DNA of 64,000 bases from contig OZ024740.1 of the NCBI GenBank assembly GCA_964016885.1, forward strand, positions 210,490,001-210,554,000, given 5' to 3'. The notes beneath the pieces are model-generated. The model was not told the origin of the DNA. It saw only the letters and a list, made by a program, of their open reading frames with translations, and ran no database searches. The translations under genes were made by a program, and so were the position numbers. Positions 37,536-45,787 of the stretch are shown here, one piece after another; position 1 is the stretch's first letter; each line of letters starts with the position of its first letter. This DNA is from Eledone cirrhosa (taxonomy: Eukaryota).

Positions 37536-37916
37536 GGAGACGCATGGCTTAGTGGTTAGAGCATTGGGCTTGCAATCGAAAGGTTGTGAGTTCAATTCTC
37601 AGACCGGGTGATGTGTTGTTTCCTTAAGCAAGACACTTCATTTCACATTGCTCCAGTTTACTCAGCTGTAAAAATGAGATGATAGGGACTGGGGTCCCTA
37701 TCATTCCACTGCAAAGTGGTCGTGGAGGTGTCACGGCAAAAAAGCACCCAGCCCACACTGTAAAGTGGATGTGTAGGCACCACGGAAAAAAAGCACCTAG
37801 CACTCACTGTAAATGAGGTTGGTGTTAGGAAGGGCATCCAGCTGTAGAAATCAAGCCAGAATCAGTTCCCGTCCCACCCTTGCAAGCAGGGAAAAGTGGA
37901 CGTAAAATGATGATGA
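37536..37916 (+). mobile_element. SINE family B (CORE-like), with internal duplication
   Basis: Near-identical to the 28745 copy; (TGA)n tail. Confidence 0.87.
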
Positions 37917-37933
37917 TATATATATATATATAT

Positions 37934-38791
37934 AATTGAAAGATAAGTATTTACTCTTAATTTTATTCTGAGTTAAGATTCTATTGGTTTTTTTCCCTGG
38001 ATTACACAAAATCTGTGGATAAAATTTGTCTTGACTTTTTTTTGAATTGGGATTGAATTATTTTCCCATATCTTACTTTAAATATTTTCCATCTTGACGT
38101 AATAGTCACTTATATGTATGAATTACTGTTGGCTTCTTGCTGACATTAATTTCTCTATTTTCATTTATATTTATAGTCAGAATTTTTCCTAGAGTGCTTA
38201 AAATTATTTGTGACTAATCCCGTTTTTTTTTTAAAAAAAACCGCGATAATATTGCTTTATGCTGAACTCCATATCTTTTGTTGAGTTTTTTTCAAAATGT
38301 TTTGACTGCTGTTTCTTGTAAACAGTCATTCGTCTCATTCTGATGTCACTAGCCCTGTTCTCCATTTGTTTTATCTTAATTCCACACGAGGTGTAACTAG
38401 CCTGTTTTTAAATTCCCTTCTGGTATAATTTAGTAGTGGTTTTGGTTATCGTGTTGAGTTCTACTGATGAATGGCTCCAACCGTGACTAACCCCACTGAA
38501 AAGTTTCGTGAAATAGTCTTTTTAAGACTATATAGAGCATTTGTAGATTTTTCCAAATTGAAGGATAAGTATTTACTCTTAATTTTATTCTGAGTTAAGA
38601 TTCTATTGGTTTTTTTCCCTGGATTACACAAAATCTGTGGATAAAATCTTTGTCTTGACTTTTTTTTTTGAATTGGGATTGAAGTATTTTCCCATATCTT
38701 ACGTTAAATATTTTCCATCTTGACGTAATAGTCACTTATATGTATGAATTACTGTTGGCTTCTTGCTCACATTAATTTCTCTATTTTCATT

Positions 38792-38796
<5 letters not shown>
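37934..38796 (+). mobile_element. Hammerhead-bearing non-coding element, ~1.4 tandem copies of a 622-bp unit (Penelope pLTR/retrozyme-like)
   Basis: Direct repeats 37934-38170 and 38556-38796, offset 622 bp; hammerhead between them; (TA)n on both sides; no long ORF. Confidence 0.75.
38458..38538 (+). ncRNA. Type I hammerhead ribozyme motif
   Basis: Stem I gttcta/tagagc; CTGATGA 38464-38470; stem II atgg..tcgt; GAAA 38510-38513; stem III tagtctt-ttt-aagacta; AUA triplet, predicted cut after 38532. Confidence 0.8.
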
Positions 38797-38842
<46 letters not shown>

Positions 38843-38932
38843 AGAGAGATAGAGAGATATAGTTAATAAATTAAACAAAGCAGAGGAGGTAATTTTACAG
38901 TTATATTAGGTTCATGTGTTTATATATATATA

Positions 38933-40620
38933 TCATCATCATCGTTTAACATCCATGTTCCACGCTTGCATGGGTTTGGACGGGAGTTTTCCCATTTGAG
39001 GCAAGAGTGGTTGTCTTGCTCGCATAGGACTGTCTGGCGGGTTTTCTCCAGTTGGATGCCCTTCCTAACACCAACCACATTTACAGTGTGGGACTGGGAG
39101 GTTTTTACCGTGTTGCCTACGATGTAGTCTTCTCTCGAGTAAACAACATCTGATCCCTCTTATTTCTAATTTTTCCCTTAGTTCGTTTATGCTTTGCCGT
39201 TCATGTATATTACTATTACACATCCAGCAGAGCATGCAAGCTTTGTTCCTCTCTAGTCTGCGTATATCCTCTGCACACAATGCCCAGGTCTCACTGCCAT
39301 GCAACATTGCTGTTCGTATGCAGGCATCATACAGCCTGCCTTTCATTTTTAGGAAGAACCCTTTAGCGGCTAATAGTGGTATAAGCTCTCTGAACTTTTT
39401 CCATCCAGTTCTGACTCTAGCTACTGTACTTTCAGAGCACCCTCCCCCACTGCTGATTTTGTCACCCAGGTAATGGAAGCTGTCCACTATTTCTATAGAA
39501 CCCTCTGCGCAATTGAAAGAGCTAGTATTTTGTGGGCACTTGCTGCTACTTATTGCACCAGAGCATCGGCCACATGTAAAATCTATGTTCTTAGTTAGCT
39601 TACCTGTGATCCCACTACATCTTTTATGCACACATACTTTGCATTTGGGACATAAAATGGAGTTTCTACCTACGCCTTTCCTACACACTGAGCATGGCCA
39701 TTTCCCAGAAGTGACCGCCGCCTTATTTTCTTTCCTACAAACTAGAACTTTAGTCTTAGCCAGGTTAATTTTAATGCCTTTTGATTCTAGGCCGTGCTTC
39801 CATGTTTGGAATTTCTTCTCTAGCTCGGCCATTGATTCAGCTATGAGCGTTAGATCATCTGCATATAGGAGTTCCCATGGGCAGCCGGTCTTGAACTCCA
39901 CTGTTATAGCCTGAAGGGCAATAATAAATAGTAGGAGGCTAAGAACAGAGCCCTGATGAACACCAACTTTTACGCTAAACTCTTCACTATATTCGTTGTT
40001 AATTCTAACCTTGCTGACTGTTTCTTTATACATGGCTTGTATAGCTCTCACAAGCCATTCATCAACACCTAGTTTTCTAAGAGCCCACCAGATAATGGAA
40101 CGGGGGACTCTGTCGAAGGCTTTCTCCAAGTCAACAAAAGCTAAGTAGAGGGGTTTACTTTTAGCTAGGTATTTCTCCTGTAGTTGTCGTACAATGAAAA
40201 GAGCGTCTGTGGAACTTTTGCCTGACACAAACCCGAACTGCATTTCATCTAGATCAATTCTCTCTCTGATTAGTTGCGCTATTACTTTTTCCGTGACCTT
40301 CATGATCTGGTCGATTAATTTAATGCCTCTATAGTTACCCCTATCTAGGGTGTCTCCTTTACCCTTGTAACAGTTAACGATGATGCTGCTACGCCAGTCC
40401 TTCGGAACAACCCCATTCTGTATGACTTGGTTTACTATCCGGGTGTCCCACCGTTCCAGAGGCTTTCAGCATCTCAGCAACTATTTCCGAAGGCCCAGCC
40501 GCCTTACCCGTCTTCATATCTTTGATTGCCTTACTTATTATACTACCTTCGACTAACACTGCTGGTCCCTCTATTGGGTCGATGTGGGGGAGACTGTCTT
40601 TCTCCCATTTATTCTCCTCA
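38933..40620 (-). mobile_element. 5'-truncated RTE-clade LINE with RT and PHD finger, internally deleted near the 3' end
   Basis: QFGF, FVDLEKAFD, GVHQGSVLS, YADD and YLG motifs; frameshift near 40440; joins its own 3' UTR at ~39120; (GAT)n tail. Confidence 0.93.
39065..40303 (-). pseudogene. RTE LINE reverse transcriptase ORF fragment (412 aa) with C4HC3 PHD finger
   Basis: RT motifs as above plus CSVC-x10-CPKC-x4-H-x2-C-x14-CGRC; no endonuclease domain (5' truncated). Confidence 0.9.
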
Positions 40621-40634
40621 TATATATATATATA

Positions 40635-41060
40635 AATATATATAAATGAGACGTATAGAGATTGTTTTAGCAAGAAGCTAACGGCATTCTATAACATATA
40701 TGCGACTATAACGTCAAGATGGGAAAAGTAGTTAACGAAAGATTTAGGAAAAATAACTCAAACTCATCTCAAAAGAGAATCAGGATACAAATTCAACCAC
40801 AGAATTTAGTAAAATCCATGGAAAAATCTATAGACCTTTAACTCATGATAAAACAAAGTCTGAAACACTTATCCTTCAATTTGGAATAACATCAAATGCT
40901 CTGTATAGTCTTAAAAGACTATTTCATGAAAACTTTCAGTGGAGATGGTCACGGTTGGAATATCATTCATCAGCAGAGCTCAACAGAAAACCAGGGCTCT
41001 CACAGTAATATAGTCCGAAAAAGGGAATTCTAAAACTGGCTAGTTCGCCTATACCACATA
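40635..41060 (-). mobile_element. Diverged minus-strand copy of the 622-bp hammerhead element
   Basis: Shares gacgt/catcttga, ttgaaggataagt, the hammerhead and aactagcc segments with 38390-38790; (TA)n flanks. Confidence 0.75.
40898..40979 (-). ncRNA. Type I hammerhead ribozyme motif (relative of 38458)
   Basis: Minus strand reads gctctg CTGATGA atga...tcat GAAA tagtct-ttta-agacta TA cagagc; all stems Watson-Crick. Confidence 0.83.
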
Positions 41061-41284: not shown

Positions 41285-42378
41285 TATATATATATACATA
41301 CATACATACATACAGGCTTTATATGAATTATGGTATCATTTCTCAGGTGAGACTCCTGGCATCAACTCTTAATTGTCTCTTATGACATGTGTAGCTATTT
41401 TATAGTGGAAATACAGATTCTAGGAAGGAAATATTTCAAGGTGAATACTAAACAGACATACACGAGGATAAACACACACATATATATACTGACATAAACA
41501 CACACATGTACAATTACATTCTGACATAAACACACATGTACAATCACATACTGATATACACACACACAGCTGAAAGAATTAGTTACAGTGGACAACAAAC
41601 ACACACATGAAGACACACACCACACACATGAAGACACACACCACACACACAAGACACACACCACAACCAATGAAGACACACACCACACACAATGAAGACA
41701 CACACCACACACAATGAAGACACACACCACATATATCATACACACGTGAAAACACACGACACACACGACATATACCATACACACGTGAAAACACACTATA
41801 CACATGACACACACCACACACCACATATACCATACACTATACACAACACACACCTAACACACCACATATAGCATACACGTGAAAACACACACTATACACA
41901 TGACACACCACATATACCATACACACGTGAAAACACACACTATACACACGACACACACATGTAGACACACAGCAGTAAGCAATTCGATCAAGGTCAACAC
42001 ACATACACACATTCATACAGAAACACACATGAAGTCAAACACAGACTTAAATATACACCAGTAAGCAATTTGAACAAGAATACACACACACACATATACA
42101 TATAACGAAGGAGTTGTGGTAAGGAACCAGGTGGACCATAACGCACCAGAGTACTCGATATTATGGGTATTAGAGTGGGTAATAGAAAAAAGTATGACCC
42201 CGACGGCAGAGCTAGAGCCGTTTCGACCCCGACGGCTTGAGCTCTGCCATCGGGGTCATACTTTTTCCTATATATATGTGTAAATGAAGTAATTCCGTCG
42301 GAAAGGTCCAGGAAAAAAGAGTGCTCTATGTAGGTTACAGAGCTTAATAGTTATGTAATAAACAACAAAAGGTAATTA

Positions 42379-42439
42379 TTTCATTTACCAGTGGTTTCTT
42401 GAGAGCAAACAAATTTTGCTTTCAATCATCAGAATGAAA
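42379..42439 (-). ncRNA. Minimal type I hammerhead ribozyme motif at the centre of a fold-back
   Basis: Minus strand reads tttcatt CTGATGA ttgaaagcaaa-atttg-tttgctctcaa GAAA ccactgg TA aatgaaa; GUA triplet; 41-bp inverted arms at 42351-42391 and 42445-42485. Confidence 0.8.
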
Positions 42440-45394: not shown

Positions 45395-45787
45395 CATCAT
45401 CATCATCACCATTTTACGTCCGTTCTTCCACGCTAGCATGGGTTAGACGGGTTGTCCTGTTGCGGGCAGTGTCCGGTCGGCTGACCATGTCTTGCTCATA
45501 CGGGAACAGATTCTGGCTTGATTTCTACAGCTGGATGCCCTTCCTAACACCAACCTCATTTACAGTGTGGGCTAGGTGCTTTTTTGCCGTGGCACTTCCA
45601 TGACCACTTTACAGTGGAATGATAGGGACTAGGGTCCCTATCATCTCATTTCTACAGCTGAGTAAACTGGAGCAATGTGAAATAAAGTGTCTTGCTCAAG
45701 GAAACAACACATCACCTGGTCTGAGAATTGAACTCACAACCTTTCGATTGCAAGCCCAATGCTCTAACCACTAAGCCATGTGCCTTC
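45395..45787 (-). mobile_element. SINE family B, full length
   Basis: Reverse complement of the 28745/37536 type, with (GAT)n tail. Confidence 0.87.

Follow-up and report, generated by a model that had tools for sequence, protein, structure and literature searches.

Plant LTR retrozymes carry LTRs, PBS/PPT signals and type III hammerheads, and their mobilisation is of the Gypsy type. For animal retrozymes, the accessible text of Cervera and de la Pena (2020, PMC7229834) sets out a circular RNA (circRNA) model in which Penelope-like elements (PLEs) are the candidate mobilisers: multimeric RNA is proposed to undergo self-cleavage and circularisation, followed by the target-primed synthesis of tandem cDNA. 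Li, Clavereau and Pollet (2026, bioRxiv 10.64898/2026.07.22.740005), in the part of their preprint available to us, describe retrozymes as non-autonomous derivatives of PLEs. The PLEs themselves target (TA)n and form partial tandems known as pLTRs (Craig et al. 2021, PMC8557442), and their reverse transcription initiates internally on the RNA (Frangieh et al. 2024, PMC11167929), according to the portions of both papers drawn upon here. The step by which animal retrozymes are copied back into DNA, i.e., Penelope-like target-primed copying of an RNA circle, has been proposed but not shown. Neither a fixed internal 3' end nor (TA)n targeting is described for retrozymes in the available portions of PMC7229834 or of the 2026 preprint. 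The text of PMC7229834 accessible to us contains no occurrence of "microsatellite", "target site", "octopus" or "cephalopod", and we found no literature on retrozymes in cephalopods.

The present study concerns a 64-kb window of the Eledone cirrhosa genome, by which we mean the whole stretch of DNA that was analysed (64,000 nucleotides), and two sister families of dispersed repeats, termed A and B, that are represented in it. As judged from their DNA, both families are further members of the known animal retrozymes. Like the animal non-LTR retrozymes, they are built of non-coding units joined head to tail; every unit bears a type I hammerhead motif, LTR features are lacking, and PLEs co-occur with them. 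Their units of 622–630 nt are larger than the RNAs of approximately 170–400 nt reported for animal retrozymes, the range allowed in the accessible text of PMC7229834 being 150 to >1000 nt. They differ further in that most copies are single 5'-truncated pieces rather than arrays, and in that their predicted hammerhead, the helix II of which contains a 31-nt insert, goes unrecognised by Rfam. With the endonuclease-bearing PLEs they share insertion into (TA)n, partial tandems, 5' truncation, hammerhead motifs and an internal start of reverse transcription, but they lack an ORF, and the inverted 5'-truncated arm or 30–40-bp tail described for PLEs is not seen in them (1 of 101 rows). Compared with the plant LTR retrozymes, they are likewise non-autonomous and hammerhead-bearing, and the circular RNA intermediate of the plant elements is only probable for families A and B; LTRs, PBS/PPT, a type III hammerhead and Gypsy-type mobilisation are all absent.

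The features of the window that bear on the two families are as follows.

37916–37934, no strand assigned: (AT)n microsatellite, the left flank and upstream half of the target; (TA)n is found at the 5' junction in 41 of 53 family copies
37934–38555, plus strand: complete 622-nt unit of family A, beginning at unit position 1, 24 nt past the cleavage-equivalent position
38150–38175, plus strand: internal occurrence of the 3'-end site, TTTCTCTATTTTCAT followed by TTATAT..., a likely start site of reverse transcription that was read through here
38458–38538, plus strand: hammerhead-like motif of type I, helix II interrupted by a 31-nt insert, predicted cut after 38532
38556–38796, plus strand: second, partial unit (unit positions 1–242)
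38776–38796, plus strand: 3'-terminal motif, TTTCTCTATTTTCAT followed by TTATAT, adjoining (TA)n and common to the 3' end of a Penelope-like family
38793–38806, no strand assigned: (TA)n, then (GA)n, the right flank and downstream half of the target; (TA)n is found at the 3' junction in 48 of 53 copies
40636–41045, minus strand: 5'-truncated family B copy of 410 nt in (TA)n, with an intact homologous hammerhead-like motif at 40886–40987

The layout proposed for the first element in the initial annotation, which was made from the letters of the window, holds throughout. The segment 37934–38796 is a head-to-tail copy of a 622-nt unit, extending over about 1.4 units, and the near-identical direct repeats that had been claimed resolve into two blocks, one of 92 nt (37934–38025 and 38556–38647; 99% identity, offset 622) and one of 140 nt (38036–38175 and 38662–38801; 97% identity, offset 626). 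The match to the internal unit stops at 38796, and the two repeats diverge by 2.1% over 236 aligned positions. The microsatellites claimed at both ends are present, as (AT)n at 37916–37934 on the left and (TA)n at approximately 38793–38806 on the right. The absence of a long ORF was also borne out, the longest stop-to-stop frame overlapping the element being 80 aa. No gene-like Rfam match lies within the 622-nt unit, and no tRNA, 5S or 7SL head was found in it with the Rfam models. Fixed TG..CA LTR ends with a primer-binding site had been named as an observation that would speak against the proposal; TG..CA termini, LTR-type ends and primer-binding sites were all absent from the family A copies examined. 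The window copy itself is an old, decayed and ordinary 5'-truncated product and a dead end. It carries a single ribozyme, such that unit-length RNA would not be released from it by its own ribozymes.

Both families carry a predicted type I hammerhead, comprising the core, helices I to III and an NUH site. In the window copy of family A, helix I is formed by GTTCTA (38458–38463) and TAGAGC (38533–38538), helix II by ATGG (38471–38474) and TCGT (38506–38509) with the 31-nt insert between them, and helix III (6–8 bp) by 38513–38518 and 38526–38531. The core segments are CTGATGA (38464–38470) and GAAA (38510–38513), and AUA precedes the predicted cut after A38532, 24 nt upstream of 38556. This hammerhead-like motif, in which all core positions are present and for which cleavage after 38532 and 24 nt ahead of the second repeat had originally been claimed, was found by a custom scanner that gave three matches in the 64-kb window and none in each of 20 shuffles. 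The Rfam hammerhead models returned nothing in the window at the gathering score, nothing at E<=10 on 37900–38900, and likewise nothing at E<=10 on intact copies of families A and B; the long helix II insert is the presumed reason. The hammerhead call is therefore based on the custom motif scan and on covariation, the Rfam models being silent. Since the standard Rfam models overlook hammerheads whose helix II bears a long insert, censuses of retrozymes based on ribozymes will undercount.

Taken alone, the window copy has an unremarkable minimum free energy fold (z -0.94), and the RNA of family B folds into a three-way junction with helices I and III as predicted. The majority sequence of family A forms perfect stems (helix I GCUCUA/UAGAGC, helix II ACGA/UCGU), from which the window copy departs by three substitutions, each yielding a wobble pair. 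Relative to family A, family B shows double changes that preserve pairing, A:U to G:C in the basal part of helix I and C:G to U:A in helix II. A U:A to A:U exchange in helix I is seen in four family A copies, from four loci, which also have G or C at N7, the single free core position of the hammerhead motif, and one copy shows A:U to G:C in helix II. Among 43 sequences, 95.1% of the stem cells are paired. Cells with a double change number 8 compared to 1.4 expected, a value reached by none of 500 shuffles, where the structure was derived from the same sequences; the number of pairs with a double change is 5 compared to 1.3 expected (3 of 500 shuffles). This covariation stems from two sister families and one subfamily, and most of the variation represents decay after insertion.

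The distribution of family A was assessed by searching the 3.0-Gb genome with the whole 622-nt unit, which gave 3248 first-look candidates; the 40 that were scored contained 106 matches of 79–100% identity. The family is dispersed across many contigs, and a one-off local duplication, the other observation that had been named as fatal to the proposal, is thereby ruled out. Two samples of copies were then distinguished: (i) 27 distinct copies, from 30 loci of which three duplicated a place, obtained with the whole-unit query and biased to copies with a complete unit, and (ii) 26 distinct copies, from 29 loci of which three duplicated places already sampled, obtained with the last 150 nt as query and unselected for length. 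In 47 of these 53 copies the 3' end falls at unit position 237–242, the remaining six ending at positions 44, 94, 217, 223, 253 and 256, and the 5' ends are spread over the whole unit, from position 1 to position 596. Ends of this kind, constant on the 3' side and truncated to varying extents on the 5' side, are the hallmark of target-primed reverse transcription, as in non-LTR and Penelope-like elements. Copies in the first sample measure 1.12–3.61 units and those in the second 0.29–1.12 units, 22 of the latter 26 being shorter than 0.96 unit and 25 reaching at most 1.03 units. The terminal redundancy expected from the initial annotation is consequently seen in copies of up to 3.6 units, but 25 of the 26 copies unselected for length have little or none. 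In the first sample, starts seemed to cluster near unit position 1, but this was rejected as an effect of ascertainment: it does not recur in the second sample, and is explained by a query that favoured copies with a complete unit 1–622.

Microsatellite sequence of the (TA)n type adjoins the 3' junction in 48 of the 53 copies, the 5' junction in 41 and both in 36. The presence of (TA)n on both sides of the copies indicates that the microsatellite is the insertion target. Other stretches of the unit are also rich in TA, e.g., the TATATA at the cut site, and none of the 101 rows (families A and B) terminates in one of them, which indicates that the start is site-specific and requires more than TA pairing alone. 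An inverted arm was observed in none of the 53 family A copies within the fetched loci.

Family B was recognised through the second match of the custom scanner in the window, which led to the copy at 40636–41045. Its unit is 630 nt long and 74–78% identical to that of family A. All 40 scored matches, from 2206 first-look candidates, are approximately 100% identical over 410 nt and lie on many contigs; the existence of at least 40 near-identical copies shows that the family was active very recently. Being near-identical and apparently live, family B is usable for RNA and biochemical tests. The sample comprised 48 rows from 47 distinct places, in two sets of 28 and 20 rows. The 3' end falls at unit position 245–248 in all 48 rows; (TA)n follows the element in all 48 and precedes it in 38. 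Lengths range from 0.47 to at least 3.63 units, two copies extending past the fetched locus, and an inverted fragment lies nearby in a single row. Starts at unit positions 225–239 account for 6 of 28 rows in one set and 0 of 20 in the other; such starts might be explained by TA microhomology or by termination after a full round. Family B has the same build as family A, and this build is accordingly general.

The relationship between insert ends and cleavage site differs from that envisaged initially. It had been proposed that the insert starts just past the cleavage-equivalent position. This is true of the window copy but coincidental. Across the 53 family A copies and 48 family B rows, there is no excess of 5' ends at the cut site, which is predicted at unit positions 599|600 in family A and 608|609 in family B, and at most one of the 48 family B rows possibly starts there. 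The clustering of ends at the cleavage site that was anticipated in aligned copies is not found; the fixed end is the 3' end, at unit position ~242 in family A and ~247 in family B, 265 nt downstream of the cut site. Nor are the copies circularly permuted at random, since they share this fixed 3' end and only their 5' ends vary. The invariant point is an internal start site and not the ribozyme site. That 5' ends are not in excess at the cut site is no evidence for a circle, nor is it evidence against one. Families A and B provide clean insertion products in this respect, with an invariant internal start and a candidate signal common to an autonomous element.

The units within a copy were also compared with one another. 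In family A, repeats differ on average by 4.5% within a copy (29 pairs) and by 7.6% between copies (1349 pairs), and in one copy (L018) three units are 0–1.3% apart with 15–17 derived differences in common. Variants in the multi-unit copies of family B were counted by hand, setting aside family-wide differences, indels in T runs and junction edges: 7 copy-specific variants are present in every covering unit, 12 are private to one unit, and intermediate patterns occur at none of the 13 sites covered three or more times. This all-or-one pattern is what repeated copying of one monomer predicts, and it adds to the description of animal retrozymes units that, within one copy, appear to have had a single monomer as template. 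Units would be equally homogeneous if transcribed from homogeneous tandem source loci or duplicated locally at a later time.

On balance, and by a small measure, we favour the interpretation of the window element as a non-autonomous, Penelope-mobilised retrozyme that was copied from a fixed internal start over some 1.4 rounds of a ribozyme-processed and probably circular monomer. The cycle would involve the following steps: (i) Source copies with two or more ribozymes would be transcribed; the circles, if they exist, would derive from such copies. (ii) The hammerheads would excise the 622-nt monomer, and a host RNA ligase would circularise it, as in the published retrozyme model. (iii) A Penelope-like endonuclease would nick (TA)n. 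(iv) The reverse transcriptase would start at ...TTTCTCTATTTTCATTTATAT, perhaps aided by TA pairing with the nicked target. (v) It would then copy round the circle over a variable distance. (vi) The 5' junction would close within the TA repeat, often at a TA-containing microhomology. Of the earlier idea of repeated reverse transcription round a ribozyme-processed template, one part is retained, since copies often exceed one unit and fit a template longer than one unit, whereas the supposed link between the ends and cleavage is not. The more specific claim, that both families record, as a genomic footprint, the rolling-circle reverse transcription of RNA circles made by the ribozyme, with the fixed motif as start, a variable stop and all-or-one variants, is advanced tentatively, our confidence in it being rather below even.

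A different template might serve the same Penelope-type retroposition. The enzyme could copy a linear multimeric or read-through transcript, or jump between linear RNAs, with no circle being formed; the hammerhead would then be a passenger, or would only trim transcripts. A fixed 3' end with variable 5' ends fits any long template, and, in the available text of the respective papers, PLEs without a circle form partial tandems as pLTRs (PMC8557442, PMC11167929) and hammerheads may simply parasitise PLEs (Craig et al., PMC8557442). Nevertheless, we consider a linear template to be on the unlikely side. With 5' truncation dominant, a lineage copied from linear templates should become shorter over the generations. 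Copies of 3.6 units or more nonetheless persist in the young family B, which points to a length-regenerating step, either a circle or template jumping. The all-or-one distribution of private variants among units and the compensatory changes, which indicate selection on the ribozyme fold, likewise speak against this alternative.

It is improbable that the families are SINE-like elements moved by a LINE (non-LTR) reverse transcriptase, with part of the (TA)n belonging to a microsatellite tail of the element. Like the copies described here, LINEs and SINEs characteristically keep a constant 3' end and lose sequence from the 5' side, and LINE/SINE elements of this genome with (ATG)n(TA)n tails adjoin the window element. 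Against this, (TA)n occurs at the 5' junction as well (41 of 53 in family A and 38 of 48 in family B) and is therefore the target; head-to-tail multi-unit copies are not a feature of LINEs or SINEs, the unit has no tRNA, 5S or 7SL head, and the terminal motif matches a GIY-YIG element and not the tail of the neighbouring LINE.

An event at the DNA level (local tandem duplication, satellite expansion or a Helitron-like rolling-circle transposon at AT) is scarcely credible: partial tandems can stem from replication slippage or unequal exchange, and Helitrons insert at A|T and can form arrays, but the copies are scattered over many contigs, alike at the 3' end and unlike at the 5' end, and 40 near-identical family B copies likewise occupy many contigs. 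Helitrons have fixed termini, 5'-TC and 3'-CTRR, and a hairpin, whereas the copies described here vary at the 5' end and finish in ...CATTTATAT. The LTR, Helitron and satellite readings were rejected on the grounds of end structure and dispersal.

A Penelope-like helper for the proposed retrozyme was sought in the genome. Autonomous PLEs, with both reverse transcriptase and GIY-YIG domains, are present: a GIY-YIG family search gave 10,596 first-look candidates, and all 150 that were scored lay above the cut-off. One PLE family yielded 22,343 candidates with its 335-aa frame as query and includes one copy with an open frame of 664 aa, which shows the features typical of PLEs with a C-terminal endonuclease. 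This family, which shares the terminal motif, contains DKGSAVV and a CGRPNCGIC (CX4CxxC) linker. By the motifs given in the available text of PMC8557442, the DKG and the CX4CxxC linker mark it as Neptune/Nematis-like and not as a member of the (TA)n-targeting Hydra clade; the DKT (instead of DKG) and the CxCX5C linker described there for Hydra-clade PLEs, which also have no CCHH, were not found in it. Its copies are 72–91% identical to the query, an age similar to that of family A.

The copies of this PLE family finish approximately 640–660 nt past the ORF in ...CGTCTCTTTCTCCCTGTTTTCAT, followed by (AT)n, and in this regard their 3' ends resemble the (AT)n/(TA)n junctions of families A and B. 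In PLE loci totalling 249 kb, the pattern TTTCTC-N2-4-TTTTCAT was encountered 25 times, at 17 distinct places and directly before (AT)n in every case; shuffling this sequence gave 0–1 occurrences. Within the 64-kb window the pattern is confined to 38150 and 38776, i.e., at the internal site and the 3' end of the element. We propose TTTCTC-N-TTTTCAT next to TA as a candidate start signal common to the parasite and its Penelope-like helper. The motif was defined after both ends had been seen, and the Penelope link is consequently a lead and not proof. The similarity of the family A unit to the PLE is confined to the terminal motif of 15–17 nt, and the 3' end of family B does not fit TTTCTC-N-TTTTCAT. 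No longer or pLTR-type similarity to the units was detected in 63 PLE-bearing loci; a 65-nt match in L184 was discarded as part of a PLE, being merely a short truncated copy of the repeat. A covariance model (R1) that recovers both hammerheads of the window identified no hammerhead of the family A/B type in 48 PLE loci, and gave one weak match (17.1 bits, E 0.13) in 15 further loci. No Rfam hammerhead reached the gathering score in sets of 14 and 15 PLE loci.

Several additional observations were made in the PLE loci. In L042, L061, L063, L065 and L071, which represent the PLE family with the shared terminal motif, a second, inverted 3' end is often located 1.6–2.7 kb away, such that the motif is present on both strands. 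Such a second inverted end is the classical head-to-head arrangement of PLEs. It is seen in several PLE loci, compared to 1 of 101 retrozyme rows. Locus L078 (G000:C2:359517000-359526900) contains a higher-order tandem array, with a period of about 3.87 kb, of a younger Penelope-like family, the protein of which is approximately 71% identical to that of the first PLE family, with both plus- and minus-strand frames in each period. In L062, positions 1501–1545 match Rfam Hammerhead_1 at 31.7 bits (gathering score 34) within a different non-coding element that ends in ...TTTGTTTTACTCTCTTAA followed by (TA)n. The genome thus holds several unrelated hammerhead families in TA repeats.

The window contains further repeats around the two retrozyme copies. 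The third match of the custom scanner, at approximately 42386–42432 (minus strand), shows CTGATGA, a long helix II and GAAA inside a foldback, and its helix III is very short and palindromic (ACCA-C-TGGT). We take this motif to resemble the minimal Penelope-type hammerheads that act as dimers. Two tRNA-like SINE heads are located at 37545–37602 (plus strand) and 45721–45778 (minus strand), each scoring 31.2 bits with the Rfam tRNA model. The family A element is flanked by inverted 88-nt arms of 81% identity, at 37773–37860 and 39033–39120, which are SINE/LINE tails that end in (ATG)n(TA)n; tails of this kind seem to supply the (TA)n targets. Directly downstream of the family B copy lies a 5'-truncated LINE-like element (39065–40688, minus strand), with frames of 466 and 99 aa and reverse transcriptase motifs (…LLYADDLTLIA…), the 3' end of which appears to be sequence common to the SINE tail. 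Finally, a palindromic element (…aaaagtatgaccccgaYggcagagc…) adjoins (TA)n at approximately 42190–42270; the same palindrome is present in the 3' flanks of unrelated retrozyme copies (L092 and L093), and it may represent another TA-targeting mobile element.
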